The translations under genes were made by a program, and so were the position numbers. Below are positions 11,981-42,157 of a stretch of DNA of 64,000 nucleotides, piece after piece. The notes beneath the pieces are model-generated. The model did no database searches. It saw nothing but the letters and a program-made list of their open reading frames with translations, and was not told where the DNA came from. The stretch's first letter is position 1. Each line of letters opens with the position of its first letter. Location of the stretch: contig NC_043014.1 of the NCBI RefSeq assembly GCF_006345805.1, positions 23,994,001-24,058,000 of the forward strand. Reading direction: 5' to 3'. The stretch is from Octopus sinensis (lineage: Eukaryota).

Positions 11981-14900
11981 ATCATAATCATCATCGTTTA
12001 ACGTCTGCTTTCCATGCTAGCATGAGTTGGATGGTTTGACTGAGGACTGGCAAGCCAGGAGGCTGCACCAGGCTCCAATCTGATCTGGCAACGTTTCTAC
12101 AGCTGGATGCCCTTCCTAATGCCAACCACTACAAGAGTGTCATGGGTGTTTTTTACATGCCACCAGCATGGGAGCCAGTCAGGTGACACTGGCATTGGTC
12201 ACATTCGAATGGTGCTTTATACGTGTCACTGGCAGTGGCATCAACCACACTCAAATGGAGCACGGGGGCCAGTTAGGTGGCACTGGCATTGACCACGCTC
12301 GAATGATGCTTTTTATGTGCCACCAGTACAGGAGCCAGTCAGGCGGCACTGGCATCAACCATCCTCGAATGGAGCTTTTTATGTGCCACCAGCATGGGTG
12401 CCAGTCAGGTGACACTGGCATTGGTCACGCTTGAACAGTGCTTTTTACATGCCACTGGCACGAGTACCAGTCGAGCAGAACTGGCATCAGCCACAACTAG
12501 GATTTCACTTGGCTCAACAGGTCTTCTCAAGCACAGTGGGTACTTTTAAACAGGCCAGTTATGTGATACTGGCATCAGTCACGATCTCACTTGGCTTTCT
12601 GGGTCTTCTCAAGCACAGCGTATCTCCACAGGTTTCAGTTGTCTGTCATTGCCTCTATGAGGCCCAACATTCAAAGGTCATGCTTCACCACCTCGTCCCA
12701 TATCTTCCTGGATCTACCTCATCCACAGGTTCCCTTCACACAGCTATCCGCATCCGCACGCAACACATGACCATACAAGTCTCTCTTACATACCACATCT
12801 GATGCTTCTTATGTCCAACTTTTCTCTCAGGGTGCTTACACTCTGTCCAGCAAAGTATACTAGCTTCATTTCTTTCAAGCCTATGTATGTCCTCAGCAGT
12901 CACAGCCCATGTTCCACTGCCATGTAGCATGGCTGTTTGCACACAAGTATCATTCAGTCTACCTTTCACTCTGGGCAAGAGGCCCTTTGTTACCAGCAGA
13001 GGTGAGCGCTCTCTGAACTTTGCCCAGGTTATTCTTATTCTAGCAGCTGTGCACTCAGAGCATCCACCCTTGCTACTGACTTGGTCACCTAGGTAACTAC
13101 TTCTTGTTTTTTTCTCCCTGGCATGTAATGGAATCTATTTTCTGTACATGTTCCCAATTAAGCTTCCTTTGATATTGCTCTACTTGTTGTGTCCATAGCT
13201 TATACCAGGTACATCTTATGGAGTTTCTATGTACACCTTTTCTACAGATCGAGCAGCACCATCTACCTGAAGGGATTTGTGATTTGTCTACCTTCCTATT
13301 TACTAAGACTTTGGTTTTTGCTAGATTGATTCTAAGGCCCTTTTGATTCTAGACCTTGCTTCCACACTTTCTTCTCTAGTTCTGGTAATAACTCAGCTAT
13401 TAGAACAAGATCATCAGCATAAGGAGCTCCCAGAGGCAGCCTGTTTTGAATTCCTCTGTTATTGCCTGGAGGACTGATCCTTAGTGAACCCCTACTTCTA
13501 CCCTGAATTCTTCACTATACTCATTGCCAATCCTCACCTTACTGACAGTGTCCATGTATATGGCTTGTACAGCTCTCACCAACCACTCATCTATCCTTAG
13601 TGTCCACATTGACCATTAGATAAGGGATCAGGACACTCTGTCAAAGGTTCTTTCCATGTCAACGAAAGTCAAGTACAGAGGTTTATCTTTGGCTTGGAAT
13701 TTCTCTTGCAGCTGTCTTACCAGAAATATAACATCAGTGGTGCTTCTCCCTGGCACAAACTGAAACTGCATCTCATCTAAACTAACTCTCTCCCTAATTA
13801 GCTGGGCTATGAACCTCTCCGTGACTTTCATCACCTGCTTCAACAATTTGATACCTTTGTAATTATTCCTATCTAATGTGTCACCTTTACCTTTATAGCA
13901 GTTGACTATGGTGCTGCTACACCAGTTATTGGGTATGACTCCTTCATGTATCACCTGGTTGACTATACAGATGACTAGACTATAGCCTACACTGTCAGAT
14001 ATTTTAAGTAGCTCGGTAGTGATTCCTAATGGGCTGGGGGATTTACCCGTCTTCATATCCTTAATTCTTTTATCTACCAAGGTACTGCCAATTCGAATAG
14101 CTGGTCCTTCTGTTGGGTTGACATTTGACAGACTCTCTTTCTCCCGTTCATTCTCTTCATTTAGCAACCTTTCATAGTAGCATCTCCAAGTCTCTATCTT
14201 TGCAGTATCATTAAATGCAAGTGAGCCATCATCCATGCTGATATATTCTCTCTCACACACTATCTTGCAATATGAAACACTTCAAGACTTTGGTCCTCAC
14301 GACACAGAACATTGGCTAATTTTTTCTTATCTGCTTCCCCTCTGGCTAAATAAACCTGTCGCCTAGCCTCCTTTCTGGTGATCTGATACAGTTTCCTGCT
14401 ACCACCACACTTCCAGTCAGTCCATGCCTGTTTCTTTTCCCTAATGGCCCTGTCAACATTATTCCACCACCACATTACCTTAGGTCAAGTGGGGACTTTG
14501 CACCAGCCACAAATATGGTCAGTAGTCCTCAACAGATTGTCCCATAGGAACTTCCAGTTGTTCTCCAATTTGTGTGATGCTATATCCTCTTTTTCATCAA
14601 AAGCTTCAAGTAATACGTCTCTATATCTCTATCCATTCAGAGGATCCTTAAGCTTCCAGACCCTTCTTTTCCATACTGGTCGTCTTCTGGACATTTAGCC
14701 TTGATCCTGAAGTCGCTAACTCCTAACCCAAGTTGAGTGCATTCTTCACCTGGGAAAGTTTTGGCATTTATAAGTAGCCATATTTCCCATTTACTGGTGA
14801 GAATGTAGTCAATTTGACTAGTGTGCCCACCAGACTGGTAGGGGAACAGGTAACTGGCAGGTTTCCTAAGTTCGCTGCAAACATTTTTGCCACAGAAAAA

Positions 14901-30118: not shown

Positions 30119-32843
30119 CTAAAAATAGAAAAAATATGTAAATTTACTTCATTATAAAATGCAAAATATACATCCACACACCCAAAATAGATATTTTTAA
30201 AAAATTTACTTATTTTATAAATGTCTATTTGTTGAATGGATGTGTTACTTTTCTGATGTAACTCAATGTATCAGCCTATTCTGAAATAAACACATATAAG
30301 ATGTGCATCTGCAGTTTCCATCTACCAAATTCCATTCATAAGATTTCAGTTGGCCTATGTGAGAGTACATCCAAGGTGTTATGCAGTGTGACTGAACCTA
30401 TAGCTATGAATTCTAAACTCAAGTCTAATAGTAAAATTTTTAAGTAAAGATTAGTTGAAATGAAACTGCATGACAAATGCCAAGAACAAATAAGACAATA
30501 AATGCCTTATAATATAGTATGTAGAACTGGAGGTTTAAGTATTGGTGATTCAGTATTAACAAACTTAACTACTTTTATCATTCAACAGATGTATTCTTGT
30601 ATTGAAATAACTCCCAAATCTATGTAATGCAAATTCACACATGATGACTGACAAGTGATGACAAAGCAAGATACGATAGAGAGCAATGGAAAATTTGGAA
30701 TGAGATAGAAAAAATCTGAGAGGATATAAAGTGAGAGAGTACTTCTGATGACAGATGCTTAATGAATCTTGCTAAGTTGCAAAAATTCTGCCTTAAACAT
30801 TTGTTAATTTCAACAAAAAATGAGAGATAGATGCAATTTAAGGGAACTTTAGAGGCTATTTCTAAAAGGTCTAGTAACCACAAAAAAAGAGAGAGATGAT
30901 TACTGATAGTGAATAGTTTTTGGTTTGTAAATATTAATAACAAATGGCAAAGTGACCACCATCTTCAATATCAAACATCAATCTAAAATGCTTACATGCA
31001 TGAGTGGACAATCCCTAAACATCTGCTGATACATTTTTGTGTGAATACGTAGTTTTGATGCTAACACATGAGAATGAAGAGTCATGATCATAAATATATG
31101 AATGAACTCTATGCCATGTACTTACTAACTCAAATATTTGGATGTATTAAAATAAGTACCAGCTGAGTACTGAGGTTGATTTAATTGATTTAGCTTCTCC
31201 CTCTAAACTGCTGGCCTTGTGTCAAAATTTTAAACTAATCTTTGGATGTATTCTTTTATTGGTTTCGATCAATGGACTGTGACAATGCTTGGGCACTGTC
31301 TTCAGAAGTGTTAATCATAATGGCCCCAGTACTGACTTTAGACTGGCATTTATTCTATAAATCTCTATTTGTTAAACCACAAGTTACAGGTTACAGAATT
31401 AACAACATCAGTTTTCAGAATAGTGCAAACACAGACACACACACACAACAGGCTTCTTCCCTAGATTTTATCATCTAAATGGAACTGCATAACATGTGCA
31501 GCATCTTGGGCAGGGGTTGTCTACTATAGCCTTAGGTGAACTAATACCTTATAAAGTGAAACTTTTAACCATACACACATAACTGCACATATATCTTTTA
31601 TCTTTTACTTGCTTCAGTCATTAGACTAACCCATGCAAGCAAAGAAAAGTACACATTAAAACAAAGATTATGATAATCCCCTTATTCTATTCACTTGTGT
31701 TGGAATTAAGAAATTGAGATGTTAAAAATAAATGGGAAATGTAAAAGTATAAATTTTCTACTCTATTGAAGTAATTACCATTTCTATGGACTGTGTGAAT
31801 TAATCCCCACCACTTTCTTCAAAACTGAAAATGCAACTTTTTGTATCTTGTCATAGTTGTTTAGTCTCAGGTCAATTTTTGCTTGAGCAAAAATATGATC
31901 AAAAATGTATAAGCTGTGACCATCCTATTTTTGTGCTTATTATTAGGGACTACATTATCCAATGTGCCCTTTCTTTTTAAAGAGAGTCAGGTATAGTTTC
32001 ATGATCTGATTGCTATTTTTAGCAGATCAAATGATTGCACAGACAGTGGTTCCAGAGATTTTTGGGCTGCCACCCAGGCCACATTCCTAGTGCAAAACAC
32101 ACACCTCTTTCTACTGCAAATTCAAAACAATTGTATTTCAGAAATAAAACTAAACCTAGTTAGCCCATTAATTTGCTGTTTTTACAACATGAAAGAGTAA
32201 ATTTACATCTTAACTGTAACAATGCTTTTTTTCTTATTTTTACTGCAATCGAGGTACATTGTACAGAAATATCAGCTTTTTGACATCAAATTGAAAAGTA
32301 CTAAGTAGTAGTCTTAGATCCCCACATTTAGTAATACGTATTTTTCAAGAAAAAATTATGTACTTCCACCTCTTCATTTTAATCTTCACAATTAAAATCC
32401 TGCAGTAGAAAAAAAAAAAAAAACGACAGAGAAATTCAGATTTTTTTATATAAAATGAATTCATAGGCACAGATGCAGCTGTGTGGTAAGAAGCTTGCTT
32501 CCCAACCACAAGGTTCTGGATTCAGTCCCACTGCATTATCCCTTGGGCAAGTGTGTCCTACTATAGCCTCGGGATGACCAAAGCCTTGTCAGTGGATTTG
32601 GTAGATAGAAACTAAAATAAATCTATTGTATATATTTATATATATAGTGTGAGTTTGGAGGGATATATTATCTGGGCGGATATTGTGGTGGCTCTCAGTT
32701 AAAGGCTAACCACATCAATTAGTATTTAATCTCTATGGCTACTATAATTATAAGGATATAGAATACGGAGACTTGCTCATCCTCAAAATTTATTTCCTCT
32801 TATTTTACAATTTCGTACAGCATATTTTTATGGTTGATACAAC

Positions 32844-35207
32844 ATCATCATCATCATCATCATCATTTAGCGTCCGTTTTCCATGCTAGCATGGGTTGGA
32901 CGGTTCAACTGGGGTCTGGGGAGCCCGAAGGCTGCACCAGGCCAGTCAGATCTGGCAGTGTTTCTACAGCTGGATGCCCTTCCTAACGCCAACCACTCCG
33001 AGAGTGTAGTGGGTGATTTTATGTGCCACCGACACAGGTGCCAGACGAGGCTGGCGAACGGCCACGCTCGGATGGTGTTTTTATGTGCCACCGACACAGG
33101 TGCCAGACGAGGCTGGCAGACGGCCACGCTCGGATGGTGTTTTTATGTGCCACCGACACAGGTGCCAGATGAGGCTGGCGGACGGCCACGATCGGATGGT
33201 GTTTGTTACGTCCCCAAAGCACGGAGGCCAGTCTATGCGGTACTGGCTACGGCCACGTTCGGATGATTTTCTTGTGTGCCACCGGCACTGGTACCACAAA
33301 GATACAAATTCTATTGATGTTCATCTATTTTGATTTGATTTGATTTGATTTTCACTTGCCTCAACAGGTCTTCACAAGTGTCACAAGAAGGAAGGTATGC
33401 ACAGGTGGACTGACTACGTCGCAGGTAGGGGCCACGGGTTATGGCCTGACTAGTCTTGCCGGGTTTCGGATGGTGTTTTTATGTGCCACCGACACAGGTG
33501 CCAGATGAGGCTGGCGAACGCCACGATCGGATGGTGTTTGTTACGTGCCCACAGCACGGAGGCCAGTCGATGCGGTACTGGCTACGGCCACGTTCGGATG
33601 GTTTTCTTGGTGCCACCGGCACTGGTACCACAAAGATACAAATTCCATTGATGTTATCTATTTTATTTGATTTGATTTGATTTTTTCACTTGCCTCAACA
33701 GGTCTTCACAAGTGTCACAGGAAGGAAGGAAGGTATGCACAGGTGGACTGACTACGTCCCAAGTAGGGGCCACGGGTTATGGCCTGACTAGTCTTGCCGG
33801 GTCTTCGGTTGGTGTTTTTATGTGCCACCGACACAGGTGCCAAATGAGGCTGGCGAACGGCCACGATCGGATGGTGTTTGTTATGTGCCCACGTCACAGA
33901 GGCCAGTCGATGCGGTACTGGCTACGGCCACGTTTGGATGGTTTTCTTGTGTGCCAACGGTACTGGTACCACAAAGATACAAATTCCATTGATGTTCATC
34001 TATTTTGATTTGATTTGATTTTCACTTGCCTCAACAGGTCTACACAAGTGTCACACACTTGCCTCAACAGGTCTTCACAAGTGTCATAAGTAGGTGTCAC
34101 ACACTTGCCTCAACAGGTCTTCACAAGTGTCATAAGTAGGAAGGTATGCACAGGTGGACTGACTACGTCGCCGGGTCTTCGGATGGTGTTTTTATGTGCG
34201 CGGTACTGGCTACGGCCACGTTCGGATGGTTTTCTTGTGTGCCAACGGTACTGGTACCACAAAGATACAAATTCCATTGATGTTCATCTATTTTGATTTG
34301 GTTTGATTTGATTTGATTTGATTTTCACTTGCCTCAACAGGTCTACACAAGTGTCACACACTTGCCTCAACAGGTCTTCACAAGTGTCATAAGTAGGTGT
34401 CACACACTTTCCTCAACAGGTCTTCACAAGTGTCATAAGTAGGAAGGTATGCACAGGTGGACTGACTACGTCGCCGGGTCTTCGGATGGTGTTTTTATGT
34501 GCCACCGACACAGGTGCCAGATGAGGCTGGCGAACGGCCACGATCAGATGGTGTTTGTTGTGCCCACAGCACGGAGGCCAGTCGATGCGGTACTGGCTAC
34601 GGCCACGTTCGGATGGTTTTCTTGTGTGCCACCGGTACTGGAACCACAAAGATACAAATTCCATTGATGTTCATCTATTTTGATTTGGTTTGGTTTGATT
34701 TTCACTTGCCTCAACAGGTCTTCACAAGTAGTGTCACACACTTGCCTCAACAGGTCTCCACAAGTGTCACACACTTGCCTCTGCCTCAACAGGTCTTCAC
34801 AAGTGTCACACACTTGCCTCAACAGGTCTTCACAAGTGTCATAAGAGGGAAGGTATGCACAGGTGGACTGACTACGTCGCCGGGTCTTCGGATGGTGTTT
34901 TTTTATGTGCCACCAACACAGGTGCCAGATGAGGCTGGCGAACGGCCACGATCGGATGGTGTTTGTTGTGCCACACAGCACGGAGGCCAGTCGATGCGGC
35001 TGTGACGCTACGGCCACGTTCGGATGGTTTTCTTGTGTGCCACCGGTACTGGAACCACAAAGATACAAATTCCATTGATGTTCATCTATTTTGATTTGGT
35101 TTGATTTTCACTTGCCTCAACAGGTCTTCACAAGTGTCACACACTTGCCTCAACAGGTCTCCACAAGTGTCACACACTTGCCTCTGCCTCAACAGGTCTT
35201 CACAAGA
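32844..35207 (-). repeat. Compound tandem array derived from the RTE 3' UTR
   Basis: One (GAT)n tail, then six higher-order units (marker AAGATACAAATT near 33299, 33633, 33975, 34262, 34649, 35060) built from 62-nt and ~31-nt subunits. Confidence 0.92.
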
Positions 35208-36059
35208 ACCTACACATGTTTCCACTGCACAAAGTATGTGCAGTTATACATGCAACTGGGCATGATTTTCTTCAAGATCTGTCCATTTGGCTAGTTTTGA
35301 AGTGAACTGAATTCAGTTGGTTGTTTGTTAGTTAGGGGTCAGGAAGAGGTTGCTTTGAAACTGAAATCAGTTCTGTCTCTAAGCTTGTGAAGTTGACCTG
35401 TTTCACACCAGTTGCTGTCTGAAATCAGGATTCTATCTAACTAGGTCAAGGTTGATGTTACTGTTTTGGTAGGCCTCTTTGTGTATTGTAGTAGTATATA
35501 TCTATGTGTGTGTGTCTTTATATCAGTGTTTATCCCCCACCACTGCTTGACAACTGGTGTTGGTGTGTTTACATCTCTGTAACTTAGCAGTTTGGCAAAA
35601 GAGACAAAAAAAAAAAAACAAGTACCAAGCTTTAAAAATAAATAAATCTTGGGGTCAATTTGTTCAACTAAAAAACCCATCAAAGGTGATGCCCCAGCGT
35701 AGCCACAGTTGAATGACAGAAACAGATAAAAGATATATACATAATGCCTAAGCAAAATATATGTAATATATATATGTATATATATATAAGTATTTATATA
35801 TGTGTGAATGTGTGTGTATGTATATATACAAATAAGAAAATGGAGAAATAAATTCATCTCATTCATCAATTTATGGATATTACAATTTTACATTATTTAT
35901 TAATTATACAAATGGGAACATCAAAATCAGACTAGACATTATATAAATCAATAGGTAATATAATAATAAAAATAATACAAATACATATTTTAATAGTCAT
36001 ATTATAAATTAAATTATTGAAATTCATAAACTACTCCTTATTTTTTTTATATGCATGCA

Positions 36060-39000
36060 TGCATCATCATCATCGTTTAACGTCCGCTTTCCATGCTAGC
36101 ATGGGTTGGACGGTTCAACTGGGGTCTGGCAAGCTCGAAGGCTGCACCAGGCCAGTCAGATCTGGCAGTGTTTCTACAGCTGGATGCCCTTCCTAACGCC
36201 AACCACTCCGAGAGTGTAGTGGGTGATTTTATGTGCCACCGACACAGGTGCCAGACGAGGCTGGCAGACGGCCACGCTCGGATGGTGTTTTTATGTACCA
36301 CCGACACAGGTGCCAGACAAGGCTGGCGAACGGCCATGCTCGGATGGTGTTTGTTACATGCCCTCAGCACGGAGGCCAGTCGATGCGGTACTGGCTACGG
36401 TCACGTTCGGATGGTTTTCTTATGTGCCACCGGCACTGGTACCACAAGGATACAAATTCCATTGATGTTCATCTGATTTGATTTGATTTGATTGATTTTC
36501 ACTTGCCTCAACAGGTCTTCACAAGTGTCACAAGAAGGAAGGTATGCACAGGTGGACTGACTACGTCCCAGGTAGGGGCCACGGGTTATGGCTTCACTAC
36601 TCTTGCCGGGTCTTCTCACGCACAGCATACTTCCATAGGTCTCGGTCTCTAGTCATTTCCATGGTGAGACCTAACGTCGTGCTTCACCACCTCGTCCCAG
36701 GTTTTCCTGGGTCTACCTCTTCCACGGGTTCCCTCAACTGCTAGGGATTGGCACTTTCTCACACACCTATCTTCATCCATTCTCGCCACATGACCATACC
36801 AGCGCAATCGTCTCTCTTGCACACCACAACTGATGCTTCTTAGGTACAACATTTCTCTCAAGGTACTAACGCTCTGTCGAGTAAGTACACTGACATTACA
36901 CATCCATCGGAGCATACTGGCTTCATTCCTCACGAGCTTACGCATGTCCTCAGCAGTCACGGCCCATGTTTCACTGCCATGTAGCATGGCTGTTTGTACA
37001 CATGCATCATACAGTCTGCCTTTTACTCTGAGCGAGAGGCCTTTAGTCACCAGAAGAGGTAAGAGCTCCCTAAACTTTGCCCAGGCTATTCTTATTCTAG
37101 CAGTTACACTTTCAGCGCACCCCCCCCACTACTGACTTGGTCACCTAGATAACGGAAGCTATCAACTACTTCTAGTTTTTCCCCCTGGAAAGTGACGGAA
37201 GTTGTTTTCTGCAGATTTTCGGAGGTCAATGCTCCCGAGCATCTGCCACATACAAAAACTATCTTCCCAGTTAGCCTACCTTTGACATTGCTGCACCTCT
37301 TATGTGTCCATAGCTTACACTGGGTACATCTTATAGAGTTTCTACCTACACCTTTTCTACAGATCGAGCAGGGCCATCTTCCTGAGGATATTTGTGGATT
37401 GTCTACCTTTCTACTTATTAGGACTTTGGTTTTAGCTAGGTTGACTCTAAGGCCCCTCGATTCTAAACCCTCCTTCCACACCTGGAACTTCTCCTCCAGT
37501 TCTGATAGTGACTCAGCAATTAGAGCGAGGTCGTCAGCATAGAGGAGCTTCCAGGGGCAACCTGTCTTGAATTCCTCCACAATTGCCTGGAGGACTATGA
37601 TAAATAGGAGGGGGCTGAGTACTGAACCCTGGTGGACCCCAACCTCTACTTTGAATTCTTCTGTGTACATGTTGCCAACCCTAACCTTACTTACGGCATC
37701 TCTGTACATGGCTTGCACAGGCCTCACCAGCCATTCATCTATCCCTAGTTTCCTCATTGACCACCAGATGAGGGTTCGGGGGACCCTATCAAAGGCTTTC
37801 TCCATGTCAACGAAAGCCAGGTACAGGGGCTTATCTTTGGCTAGGTATTTCTCCTGCAGCTGCCTTACCAGGAATATAGCATCAGTGGTGCTTTTCCCTG
37901 GCACGAACCCAAACTGCATCTCATCTAAACTAACTCTCTCTCTAATTAGTTGGGCTATGACCCTCTCCGTAACCTTCATTACCTGATCCAACAGCTTGAT
38001 ACCTCTGTAATTATTTGTATCTAGGGCATCACCTTTACCTTTGTAGCAGTTGACTAGTATGCTGCTACACCAGTCATTGGGTATGACTCCTTCGTGTATC
38101 ACCTGGTTGACTATACGGGTGACTAGGTTATAGCCGACACTGCCAAATATTTTGAGCATCTCTGCAGTAATTCCTGATGGGCCTGGGGCTTTCCCTGTCT
38201 TCATGCTTCTAATTGCCTTAGCTACCACGGAACTATCAACTCGGATAGCTGGTCTCTCTGTTGGGTCAACATTCGGCAGACTCTCTTTATCCCATTCATT
38301 TTCTTTATTCAGCAACCTTTCATAGTGGCATCTCCAAACCTCTCTCTTTGCATCCTCATTTAGCGCAAGTGAACTATCATCCATGCGAACACACTTCTCT
38401 CCTACCACATCACGATTCTCTCTCACACACTGTCTTGCAACACGAAATACCTCAAGTTTTTCATCCTCACGGCTCAGAACATTGGCAAATTTTTTCTTAT
38501 CCGCTTCCCCTCTGGCTAAATAAACCTGTCTCCTAGCTTCCCTTTTGGCTAAATAAACCTGTCTCCTAGCTTCCTTTTGGCTAAATAACCTGTCTCCTAG
38601 CTTCCCTTTTGGCTGTCTGATACAATTCCCTGCTACCACTGTTCTTCCAGTCCTTCCAAGCCTGTCTCTTTTGTCTAATAGCCCTGTCAACCCTGTTCCA
38701 CCACCATGTTACTCTGGGTCGAGATGGTACTTTGCTCCATCCACAGATCTGTTCAGTGGCTGTCAGCAGATTGTCTCGTAGGAATCTCCAGTTGTCTTCC
38801 ACATTAAGTGAAGCTATATCCCCTTCTATTTCGTCAAAGGCTTCGAGTAGTATGTCTCTAAATCTCTGTCCATTTGCAGGATCTTTAAGCTTCCAGACCC
38901 TTCTCCTCCAAGCTGGTCTTCTTCTGGGCAACCATTTAGCTCTGATCCTGATGTCGCTAACTACTAATCTATGTTGAGGAGTACATTCTTCGCCTGGAAA

Positions 39001-39541
39001 GGTTTTGGCATTTATAATCAGCCCTCTTTCCCTTTTTCTGGCAAGGATGTAGTCAATCTGGCTGGTGTGTCTGCCAGAACGGTAGGTGACTAGGTGAGAG
39101 GTGGGTTTCCTGAAGTTGGTATTGCAGACCATAAGGTCATTTTCATCGCAGAACTCCAGCAGCCTGGTTCCCTCCTCATTACGAGAGCCAAAACCGTAGC
39201 CTCCATGGATGCCATGGAAGCCCCCGACATGTCGTCCAACATGTCCATTGAAATCACCTGCCACGAAGAGAAGGTCACTGTCATTTGTCAACGAAGTAGT
39301 CCGCAATAGGGTGTCATAGAATTGGTCTTTTTGTCCTTCCGGTAGCCCTGGTTGAGGGGCATATGCCGAGATGATGGTAGCTGTCCTATGGTGTAGGACT
39401 AATCTAATTTTAATTACTCTGTCACTTACTCTGACTACCTCGATTACCTTACCTACTCATTTCTCCGCAAGAAGTATACCCACGCCCCCGACCCCGTCAG
39501 TGTTCCCTGCCCAGAAAATCTTGTACCTGTGTTCTGTGAGC
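36060..39541 (-). mobile_element. RTE-clade LINE, young, 5'-truncated, inactivated (APE endonuclease + RT + PHD-like finger + 3' UTR + (GAT)n tail)
   Basis: GDFNGHVG, SQIDYIL, QFGFVPG, GVHQGSVLSPLLF, YADD motifs; TGG>TGA at 39457-39459; frameshifts near 38550-38590, 37120 and 36677. Confidence 0.95.
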
Positions 39542-39593
39542 ATATATATATATATATATATATATATATCATTCATAACCCCTATCTTACTTT

Positions 39594-39666
<73 letters not shown>

Positions 39667-39667
<1 letters not shown>

Positions 39668-39704
39668 TGTCTGATGAACGGCAACGAGAAACTCAGAGTA
39701 ACAG
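39667..39704 (+). ncRNA. Minimal type I hammerhead ribozyme motif
   Basis: CTGT-CTGATGA-ACG gcaa CGA-GAAA-CTCAGAG-TA-ACAG; canonical core, stem I 4 bp, one mismatch in stem II. Confidence 0.75.
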
Positions 39705-39769
39705 ATTTTGTTGAATTTTCTGCTGCTTAAAATAAAGTATATATATATATATATTATATATATATATAT

Positions 39770-40268
39770 AAAATAATAGTTATCGCCATACTAATATGGC
39801 ATTCTTATAAAAATAAGAAAAAAGCTGTCCGCTTATTAGCTCCATGAGGCCATCGCCTTAAGTTAGCTATTTGATACACAAACTGTATCCATATAACCTT
39901 CGAACAAGGGAGGTCAGTCGCTCCACACTACTTGACCAGCAGCTACAGACGCGTTTCGGAGTATTGCCCCTTTTCAATGCAGCGTAGCCAGCCAGTAGGT
40001 GTCGCTTCCGACAATCTCTGTTCGATGGTTTTATTTACCTAGTTTCGGTGGAATACATCCACTTGTTTTCAATAATAGAAATATTAAAATAACTAAGTCT
40101 CTCTAAAAGAGAACAGCGGCAGCGTTCCCGGAAAATAATAGTTATCGCCATACTAATATGGCATTCTTATAAAAATAAGAAAAAAGCTGTCCGCTTATTA
40201 GCTCCATGAGGCCATCGCCTTAAGTTAGCTATTTGATACACAAACTGTATCCATATAACCTTCGAACA
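39770..40268 (-). mobile_element. Penelope pseudo-LTR / retrozyme-like tandem unit (362-nt period, 1.4 copies)
   Basis: Identical 137-bp direct repeats 39770-39906 and 40132-40268 enclosing the hammerhead motif; CpG-rich; abuts (TA)n. Confidence 0.7.
39942..39983 (-). ncRNA. Minimal type I hammerhead ribozyme, U3-A8 core variant
   Basis: Minus strand GCTGCA-TTGAAAA-GGGG caata CTCC-GAAA-CGCG-TC-TGTAGC: stem I 6 bp, stem II 4 bp, palindromic ACGCGT stem III, GUC cleavage triplet. Confidence 0.8.
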
Positions 40269-40269
40269 T

Positions 40270-40530
40270 GTCACCTACTGCATCTCCTACTCTCTCTGTC
40301 TTTCCCTGTATATTGGTCAAACAGGCCAGTGCTTAGCCAACTGGTTTGCCAAACATCTCCAGAACATCAGACTCAGCAATGATACCCCAGGCATTCTGCT
40401 CAACAGGTGAATCGCTACATCTGTCTGTGTTCAGACTGGCCTTGCACAGAGGCCACCTGGATTCCCACCTCTGATGAGAGCAGGAATCTATTTTCTCTCT
40501 TCATTCCTCAGTTCCTCAGTCTCAATTCAT
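40270..40530 (+). mobile_element. Penelope-like GIY-YIG endonuclease remnant
   Basis: Translates VTYCISYSLCLSLYIGQTGQCLANWFAKHLQNIR, matching the PLE pattern VIYxIxCxxCxxxYIGQTGRxLxxRFxEH; later EQExIFSL. Confidence 0.8.
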
Positions 40531-42100
40531 CACCCCCACACATTTTCACACATCCATTTTCCACTACCCCTCCTCCTCTACCTCCCATACACCTATCGTG
40601 GCCATGCATTGCCCTCTTTTGACCACCCTGTTATCACCCCATTTTTCTCCAACGCCCCACCCTCCGGACCTTTCCATCGCCCACTTTGAGAACCACTGGC
40701 AAAGGAGTTCCTGCATATGCCATATTTATATATCATTGTCAACATATTTATCAATGATCAGTTTCGCTTTTCGTTTGATTCAAGTTCACTCAAGTGTTAA
40801 CATTGAGGAAAGACAGAACATTATAACAGTGAACGGTTTATAATTTGGACATTTTTATAAAGTTACAAGCATCATGTCATATTTCATTTAGATACTATAA
40901 ATGTTTAGCTAGTATATGAAATTGTTTTGTTTTGTTATTTTCTTTTCTTCTGTAGGTAAAGCCTATATTCTTTATTATGTTAAGAGGTCGTCTATTTGGC
41001 GATCTTGAAGTTCAACTTAGGGTAAGGGGACTAACAGCTATTTCCCCATAAAATGGCATGTAGGGAGATACGCAAGCATCCACTCAAGGCACACACTCAT
41101 TCTGGGCAATAGCATTTAGAGAGCAAGGTAAACACAGATATTACGCTAAGAGAGCCAGGGAAACAATCATTCTAGATAATGATAAACTATAATGGTATTA
41201 CACATCTGTAAACAACAAAACACACACAAAAGCATTACTTCCAGTCCTTCACTTTGCATCTGTTCAAAAGGAAACTGACAGATGTATCAATAAGAGTTCT
41301 CATGAACAAGAACTGATCTGTTGACGAGTTGAAACCATCGCTGCGGTTTTACGAAGCGTTGTGGAAAAGTCATGGGACGTCATGACTTACCCAATAAACT
41401 ATTTTCCAGATATAAAAAAATAGAATCGTTTCTTTATTTCTGCTATGTGAAACGACAAATATGTCTAATGGTAATTTTTCTTTTCTATTTTTTTTTTTTA
41501 CTTTATAAAACGTTTCAAATTTATAATATCAATAACGTAAGACCGGAAAACGTTCATGCCTTCCTTAAGCCCAGATCGTAAATGAAGTGATGTAGCTACC
41601 GAGAACTAAAGCTTGATTTTGAACTCTGTCAGGAACTCATTTGCTCGACGGCGCTTATGCAATTAACGTGAAAAAAGAAAAAAAAAGCAGGTTGAGAGAA
41701 TTTCAAAGTTAGCTTTGAATTTTACAGCGAAAGTACAAATAAAAATTTTAAAAAATGAAAAGTAACTAAAAGAATATACATACATATGACCTGATCAACA
41801 ATCTAACTTGAAATGTTAATACACACCGGTTAGCATAGAGCAATTCTTTTAGTCACAAGAAAATTAAATATTGTAAACAGTGATATTATATATATCATGA
41901 ATATGTTGAAATGGTTTCATCGATCATTTAAAATAAATTTTTACAAAAAAAAAAAAAATATTAAAAAGTATTAATGATGTGGAATTTTCATAAAAAAGTG
42001 TCAATATTTATCTATCTCTATATATAACACCTACATAGTTATGTGTATACTTCATTCAAATAGACTAAAGAAAAATACGAGTGAATGATGCTACTTATAC

Positions 42101-42157
42101 CTTAGTTTTAAATTGCTGCAAAACATCAGTCGAAATCGGATTAAGTTGCTCCATCAT
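42101..42157 (-). CDS. C2H2 zinc-finger gene, probable first coding exon (MMEQLNPISTDVLQQFKTK)
   Basis: ATGATG start, 57 nt open, ends AAG|GTATAAG (phase 0), matching the phase-0 acceptor at 30118; lies in unique, relatively CpG-rich sequence. Confidence 0.65.

Follow-up and report, generated by a model that had tools for sequence, protein, structure and literature searches.

A young hammerhead retrozyme of Octopus sinensis with a probable snRNA-type promoter and a dedicated LINE

The window analysed here, 64,000 nt of Octopus sinensis DNA (contig NC_043014.1, positions 23,994,001 to 24,058,000, assembly GCF_006345805.1), holds on its minus strand a dispersed copy of a young hammerhead retrozyme with a 362-nt unit. 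The element is a new cephalopod retrozyme of the kind without long terminal repeats (non-LTR), and not a pseudo-LTR (pLTR) of a Penelope element. We consider it likely that it is transcribed from a promoter of small nuclear RNA (snRNA) type and inserted by Penelope proteins; it is predicted to cleave itself and circularise, and it is the precise target of a long interspersed nuclear element (LINE). The novelty lies in what the copies reveal: a strict two-end rule, signs of a circular template, a probable snRNA promoter and a dedicated LINE.

The whole insertion in the window measures 499 nt or 1.38 units and runs through unit positions 226-362 and then through 1-362; in the full unit, position p corresponds to window position 40132-p. 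The two 137-nt copies (39770-39906 and 40132-40268), which an earlier note on this DNA had reported as identical repeats 362 nt apart, are 100% identical at exactly that spacing and are the overlap of a 1.38-unit copy, not terminal repeats. The features are:

39770..40268, minus strand: whole insertion, 499 nt (sequence comparison)
40132..40268, minus strand: 5′-truncated partial unit, starting in the truncation hot spot at unit 221-228
39770..40131, minus strand: one full 362-nt unit, terminating at the 'A' 3′ end beside a (TA)n tract
39928..39998, minus strand: type I hammerhead, predicted cut between 39948 and 39947
39993..40009, minus strand: unit 123-139, LINE target (empty in this copy) and putative transcription start
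40048..40090, minus strand: block of 43 nt shared unchanged by subfamilies that are 82% alike
40072..40131, minus strand: 60-nt tail between the A and B ends, in two-armed insertions on one arm only
39902..39914, minus strand: distal motif in common with U1 promoters
39738..39769, no strand: (TA)n tract serving as target
30119..42100, minus strand: host intron 1, C2H2 zinc-finger gene (homologues and contigs of sequencing runs)

Retrozyme family

With the 499-nt insertion as query, genome G000 gave 766 candidates, of which 40 were scored, and 104 matches at 98-100%. The ribozyme motif, searched as an exact 31-nt pattern left free at positions 3, 7 and 8 and at one stem base, occurs 1,235 times in this genome and its reversed control 0 times. 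Over 342 segments of 82 insertions, from which one duplicate locus and one older copy had been removed beforehand, substitutions number 390/76,625 (~0.5% divergence), and uninterrupted arrays reach 10 units. The earlier note, made from the letters alone, had proposed a recently mobile non-coding hammerhead element with tandem loci and a genome-wide search for arrays; motif count, divergence and arrays all bear this out.

The units are non-coding and in tandem, fall within 150-450 nt and contain a type I hammerhead each, and there is no LTR, primer site or coding partner in cis, the repeats being unit overlap; these are the marks of a non-LTR retrozyme. A Penelope coding match lay in the fetched flank at 5/119 loci and was nowhere continuous with the unit where checked. 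The first half of the note's label 'retrozyme/pLTR-like' therefore stands and the second falls, and the unit is not confined to the terminal repeats of coding Penelope elements, the case in which the note would have called it an ordinary pLTR.

An older subfamily is 82% alike (2,684 candidates). A third, sister hammerhead family has a unit of 358 nt and is identical to the 362-nt unit in 207/383 aligned columns (54%), with an alignment score of 175 as against at most 108 in 100 shuffles.

Hammerhead ribozyme

On the minus strand, where the note had seen it, helix I is formed by 39983-39978 and 39947-39942; the core UUGAAAA (39977-39971), helix II (39970-39958), GAA, the palindrome ACGCGU of helix III (39954-39949) and C17 (39948) complete the hammerhead, and the cut is predicted after C17, that is, after unit position 184. 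Helix I has 6 bp and continues through a UAC/U internal loop into a 12-bp extension, and helix II has 4 bp. The fold of the unit (z = -7.5 against 100 shuffles) and the 1,235 exact motifs against 0 in the reversed control indicate that the hammerhead is not due to chance. Scanning all 64 kb with a hammerhead descriptor gave three matches (this hammerhead, 39671-39700 on the plus strand and a weak one), and an Rfam search recognised no hammerhead at E up to 5-10.

As modelled, the ribozyme is a canonical type I with extended helix I. The minimal form, by the definitions in the relevant passages of PMC4209133, has a helix II of 7-8 bp, a helix I of 4-5 bp and an unpaired base after A9, which do not fit the unit, so the note was right about a palindromic stem III and wrong about a minimal type I. 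Its view that the U3-A8 core is not decay holds: U3-A8 is a family trait, present in 99 of the 100 motifs listed among the 1,235, with G3-A8 in one. U3-A8 in itself is ordinary, being a published variant with about 1,300 motifs in Schistosoma Penelope ribozymes (PMC4209133, the only paper that a literature search on 3-8 variants turned up). In the sister family (L334-L362, L371-L389) the core is U3-G8 in 20/23 and C3-G8 in one; these cores suggest a path to U3-A8 through a wobble pair.

The G-U pair in helix II of the window copy is found in 165 motif copies. In eight sequences hand-picked for divergence, a small and related set, 97.4% of cells are paired and three pairs show a double change, in the helix I extension, in helix II and in the helix III palindrome; N7 also varies. 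The stems are thus conserved in other copies, the outcome on which the note had made its reading depend, and the compensatory changes across subfamilies argue for selection on the structure. A second hammerhead-like reading, of unit 55-100, was dropped because helices I and II are mismatched and GAAA is broken in the older subfamily; the block is better read as the B end plus the element resembling a proximal sequence element (PSE) described below.

Insertion structure and Penelope elements

The 82 insertions comprise 55 two-armed (head to head), 20 single and 7 complex ones, some of the latter two classes having later proved to be pieces split by a LINE. One arm ends at 355-362 (A) and the other at 55-62 (B), 60 nt apart, in 48/55 two-armed insertions; the remainder are 2 AA, 0 BB and 5 with an odd end (p = 1e-12 on 48/50). 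A run of (TA)4 or more lies within 30 nt at 111/123 3′ ends, arm-arm junctions overlap by 1-10 nt in 44/55, and the older subfamily, judged by eye, has the same end pattern. Arms of the sister family at L381, L385 and L387 also begin at the distal motif, like those of the hot spot at 221-228.

For Penelope elements, incomplete tandem copies, a truncated copy in inverse orientation, a tail on one side and a preference for TA have been described (PMC8557442, in the parts covered), and the unit has the hallmarks of Penelope mobilisation in its inverted 5′-truncated arm, one-sided tail and (TA)n target. Genome G000 has a young coding Penelope family (97.5-98.8% identity) with 780-781-aa frames (781 aa at five loci), RT and GIY-YIG domains, the Neptune CxxxxCxxC linker and TA targets. 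It carries a U3-A8 ribozyme near its 3′ end; the helix III palindrome of this ribozyme is the one seen in the older retrozyme subfamily. Two of the copies viewed show the two-end design. In the cases viewed, TA or other sequence lies between the retrozyme and a coding Penelope match nearby. The insertion anatomy suggests that Neptune-type Penelope proteins are the likely means of inserting the retrozyme in trans; Penelope mobilisation of retrozymes has been proposed from co-occurrence and homology (bioRxiv 2026.07.22.740005 and PMC7229834, in the parts covered). A literature search on twin priming by Penelope, outside which most subscription papers lie, gave nothing relevant beyond the papers cited.

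Other elements of this kind were seen in passing. Penelope-linked hammerhead-like motifs with A3-U8 and U3-A8 cores lie at L049:2072 and L043 (minus 2937), and another non-coding two-armed element with a one-sided tail stands beside a Penelope copy (L053:6738-7400, L054).

Signs of a circular template

Minor alleles are shared in 38/72 comparisons within arms, 46/80 between arms and 1,229/24,748 between loci, and 44/59 recurring variants are present in every covering unit. Variants private to one locus occur in every unit of both inverted arms at L023, L077, L107, L091 and L120. Among 12 long arrays, L236 shows a period of 2 three times over, L233 a period of 4 and L081 a period of 2. These patterns would be accounted for most simply by one circular template, sometimes a dimer or tetramer.

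Promoter-like motifs

Several classes can be told apart among the promoters of U1 (L244-L272) and U2 (L273-L302) genes, which have an ATCAGT core around -58, and the U1 classes share a distal 8-mer. This motif, CTCCCTTG, stands at -245 to -265 in 26/28 U1 upstream regions (4 sequence groups), and in the unit an exact CTCCCTTG stands at -265 relative to position 123 (~2e-4 as judged post hoc from composition). With a U1 PSE matrix a start at 122-123 ranks first of 724 in 3/4 windows, and the PSE-like stretch lies inside the sole 43-nt block identical between subfamilies, 40048..40090, which contains both the B 3′ end (40072) and this motif (about 40071-40049). The names PSE and distal element are ones that we assume by analogy.

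The match is clearer in the sister retrozyme, which starts with ATCG like U2, has a U2-type 10-mer at -61 as in one U2 promoter class (-61/-60) and, wherever the flank is long enough, shows the distal motif at about -265. It is probable from these matches that the unit carries a captured snRNA-type promoter with its start near the LINE target site. Newt satellite 2 is a recorded case of a repeat with an snRNA promoter (PMC2220036, in the part covered, citing Coats 1994); a literature search for snRNA promoters in retrozymes gave nothing relevant beyond the papers cited.

A LINE targeting the retrozyme

The LINE was found as a flank common to several retrozyme loci. It is 5.36 kb long, with zinc knuckle, APE, RT and zf-RVT domains, and its closest solved relative is human L1 ORF2. 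One copy has open frames of 512 and 1,140 aa; the others are broken, in part perhaps by assembly errors. We take it to be Tx1-like by analogy; a homologue search for its placement in Tx1 returned only unnamed proteins.

When the 3′ end of the LINE was used as query, 29 of the 30 best copies ran on into unit position 123/124, 27 of them into the unit and two into the 17-nt duplication followed by another LINE. The junction follows the exact 3′-end motif in 33/39 cases; of the six exceptions, five are members of an older LINE subfamily. The LINE inserts at unit 123-139, duplicating these 17 nt, always on the ribozyme strand and nearly always at full length (28 fetched copies are complete, their 5′ junction falling at 139 or close by). 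With such counts it passes the threshold for a target-specific LINE, more than 20% of flanks in one sequence (PMC4494074, in the part covered). A literature search for a LINE in a hammerhead repeat found no such case, Repbase and the supplements of PMC4494074 and PMC7229834 being outside its scope.

A sister LINE, 89% alike, came to light through a LINE copy found at +1 of a U2 gene. Among its 30 best 3′ ends, 23 are in the sister retrozyme, at the matching site, 5 are in tandems, 1 is in U2 and 1 is elsewhere. The copy in the U2 gene is 5,380 nt long, duplicates U2 +1 to +14 with one mismatch and starts with the first 14 nt of the sister retrozyme; it appears to be one natural record, in the sister family, of a LINE RNA that started at retrozyme +1. 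By analogy, a borrowed start is suggested for the LINE of the 362-nt retrozyme itself. An older LINE relative ends at +1 of a U1 gene. Its subfamily (L363-L370) ends at TATAC/ATACT-like sites, with U1 in 1/8; Rfam found nothing at four of the other sites, some of which could be unannotated snRNA-type genes.

Proposed cycle and alternatives

We propose the following cycle. In an array each unit would lend its distal motif (-265) and PSE-like motif (about -60) to a start in the unit that follows, near position 123. The ribozyme is predicted to cut after 184, with a second copy helping through the palindromic helix III, and a host ligase (a role taken from PMC7229834, in the part covered) to close monomers and some multimers. 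A broken (TA)n tract would supply two primers, one from each end, that are extended on a single template from fixed AU-rich sites separated by 60 nt; each copy would go round the circle and stop, and the two would join head to head by microhomology. The two-armed design is a DNA structure that we observe and its mechanism one that we infer. The LINE RNA would start at retrozyme +1 and end at the ribozyme cut, 62 nt past the LINE end.

We give an even chance to a wider scheme, a three-tier chain of parasites in which Neptune Penelope proteins, by priming from both target ends at two fixed sites of one circle, copy a circular hammerhead RNA with a captured U1/U2-type promoter, and a LINE lineage homing on the start sites of snRNA genes has specialised twice on these retrozymes. 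These LINEs would use the retrozyme promoter for their 5′ end and the ribozyme for their 3′ end, and would track the retrozymes as these diverge while the core drifts through C3-G8, U3-G8 and U3-A8.

Several observations weigh against the proposed cycle. For the promoter, the exact distal motif is found in 0/30 U2 promoters and has one mismatch in the older subfamily, the PSE score is matched by 21-178/300 shuffles and so is weak alone, and a combined U1+U2 PSE matrix places the best start at 127 with a score reached by 94/300 shuffles. The 5′ ends of arms do not pile up at the putative start, nor at the cut (8/150 at 181-188; 4/101 in the unbiased set, p = 0.19), and instead cluster at 221-228 (21/150 overall, 10/101 among motif-recruited loci), where the window copy also begins. 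Single-unit variants number 196, the unit and the coding Penelope ends have no sequence homology, and 8/9 Xenopus retrozyme dimers are reported not to cleave in vitro (bioRxiv 2026.07.22.740005, in the part covered). The expression evidence consists of contigs only, from which no strand, ends, level or circles can be derived.

It is very improbable that the copies are ordinary pseudo-LTR fragments of a coding Penelope element. Penelope elements too have a tandem and inverted structure, TA targets and a tail, and U3-A8 is known from pLTRs, yet coding matches stand near 5/119 loci only, none of them continuous where checked; pure arrays of up to 10 units, a canonical ribozyme and the lack of homology to coding Penelope ends complete what is already largely a refutation. 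Less probable again, and scarcely credible, is that LINE and unit form one composite element in which the LINE moves the retrozyme. It would suit one retrozyme insertion (G000:C3:72500871-72529901) of five consecutive units with a full-length LINE in each; those five LINEs, however, differ by 8-30 substitutions and group with LINEs at other loci, which indicates repeated insertion at the DNA level. Near-identical LINEs also occur in different retrozyme subfamilies, most LINE-bearing arrays keep uninterrupted units, and about 40 LINE ends face 1,235 motifs, so the composite is already refuted for most loci. Three apparent truncated LINE-plus-unit insertions ran into assembly gaps.

Two further explanations are unlikely without being so remote. 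The same element and Penelope machinery might use a linear read-through transcript of an array as template, with arrays growing later by unequal crossing over, a weak ribozyme and no part for circles. Slow cleavage is indeed predicted from U3-A8 and a 2-bp helix III, Penelope ribozymes are poor cleavers (PMC4209133, in the part covered), and shared variants also fit linear transcripts of uniform source arrays or later duplication, just as higher-order periods could come from DNA duplication or assembly error. Against this stand the locus-private variants in all units of both inverted arms at several loci, the threefold recurrence of period 2 in L236, the 10-unit arrays in a family less than 1% diverged (linear copying can only shorten arrays) and helix pairing kept through double changes. 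Slightly less unlikely, though still improbable, is that DNA sequence by itself guides the LINE to its site and that the LINE brings its own promoter, the motifs of the unit being chance or vestigial and arrays being transcribed by read-through. The PSE score is not significant alone, Tx1 endonucleases are sequence-selective (PMC4494074, in the part covered), and the older LINE relatives end at TATAC-like sites with a U1 gene in only 1/8; but the exact distal 8-mer at U1-gene distance is kept in a sister family 54% identical, that family shares a 10-mer at -61/-60 with one U2 promoter class, and the first 14 nt of the sister retrozyme stand at the head of the sister LINE in the U2 gene.

Window copy and host gene

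In the window copy all but 5 nt of the distal promoter-like motif are missing from the partial unit (40132..40268); that of the full unit, at 39902..39914, lies 265 nt ahead of position 123 of a next unit that is not there. With one ribozyme and a cut promoter the copy is likely a dead end; a single ribozyme cannot by itself yield the ~362-nt monomers that the note had thought possible from tandem loci. No target duplication is visible. Its sole possible effect, as modelled, might be an occasional cut in the host intron, and it is probably unimportant to the host gene.

That gene encodes a C2H2 protein; those of its homologues that bear names come from cephalopods, among them an Octopus protein at 98%. 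A coding exon at 42157/42154-42101 and an exon at 30118-29246 flank the intron; 42154-42101 is joined to 30118 in three homologues, and contigs of 3/4 runs examined have the same joint, an 11,982-nt GT-AG intron. The retrozyme copy is therefore intronic and sense, as the note, which placed it in intron 1 of a zinc-finger gene, had expected if exon 1 is at 42157. Three runs, which are RNA by the splice joint, contain contigs of the unit; these mostly carry the majority alleles at 39938 and 39960 and so come from copies other than that in the window.

RTE-like LINE frames (endonuclease, RT) lie in introns of the host gene at 36649-39456 and 13628-14281, both on the minus strand, the former ending about 300 nt from the retrozyme. 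A second, unrelated hammerhead remnant with a CUGAUGA core and short helices lies at 39667-39740 on the plus strand, inside the same TA tract; at L049 and L035 similar sequence is paired head to head within TA repeats, which points to another Penelope-type short element.

Comparison with known systems

The retrozyme papers leave open which enzyme moves animal retrozymes and whether circles are the template, and the octopus insertions bear on both: the two-armed structure with its strict A/B rule is of Penelope type, and the unit patterns are what would be expected of rolling round mono- and multimeric circles. The family also offers a 60-nt candidate cis element and a near-intact candidate partner. 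The LINE integrates as a complete copy at a single position of a mobile ribozyme gene and seemingly takes promoter and 3′ processing from the retrozyme; it is relevant to the question of how Tx1-type elements change their targets and to tools for site-specific insertion.

Animal non-LTR retrozymes of coral, mussel and axolotl (PMC7229834; bioRxiv 2026.07.22.740005; here and below, compared through the parts of the sources covered) are likewise non-coding tandem units of 170-400 nt and low GC, with one type I hammerhead per unit, a highly paired fold and co-existing Penelope elements. The octopus unit differs in its U3-A8 core within a canonical ribozyme and in its dedicated LINE parasite; its insertions are mostly short and two-armed with two fixed ends, whereas animal retrozymes form long satellites, and its mobiliser is deduced from insertion anatomy, not from co-occurrence or pLTR homology. 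A literature search for cephalopod hammerheads gave nothing relevant, Repbase and several supplements, which may list cephalopod retrozymes, being outside its scope.

Neptune-clade Penelope elements and pLTR ribozymes (PMC8557442, PMC4209133) share with it partial tandems, an inverted 5′-truncated arm, a tail at one end, a (TA)n bias and U3-A8. The octopus unit, in contrast, has no reading frame, a canonical and not a minimal ribozyme, a tail of 60 nt versus 30-40 and no detectable homology to the coding Penelope elements of its own genome. Newt satellite 2 is also a hammerhead repeat, with an snRNA-type promoter like the one proposed for the octopus unit (PMC2220036 citing Coats 1994) and an internally looped helix I extension (PMC6155905); the octopus family differs in being molluscan, dispersed and young, with a promoter read from sequence match and the LINE junction, not from an assay.

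Target-specific Tx1 LINEs (Tx1L in Tx1D, Keno in U2, Tx1-Mar; PMC4494074) resemble the octopus LINE in their Gag-like ORF1 and APE-RT ORF2 and, with the co-transcription of R2, in a fixed site in a multicopy sequence, a 14-17-nt duplication, tandem insertions and a reliance, for the octopus LINE a putative one, on transcription from the flank, which PMC4494074 describes for target-specific Tx1 elements. A figure legend there has 'satellites' among Tx1 targets, without names in the passages covered. The octopus LINE is set apart by its target, the putative +1 of a mobile hammerhead RNA gene, by the existence of two LINE/retrozyme pairs and by relatives that join +1 of U1 and U2.
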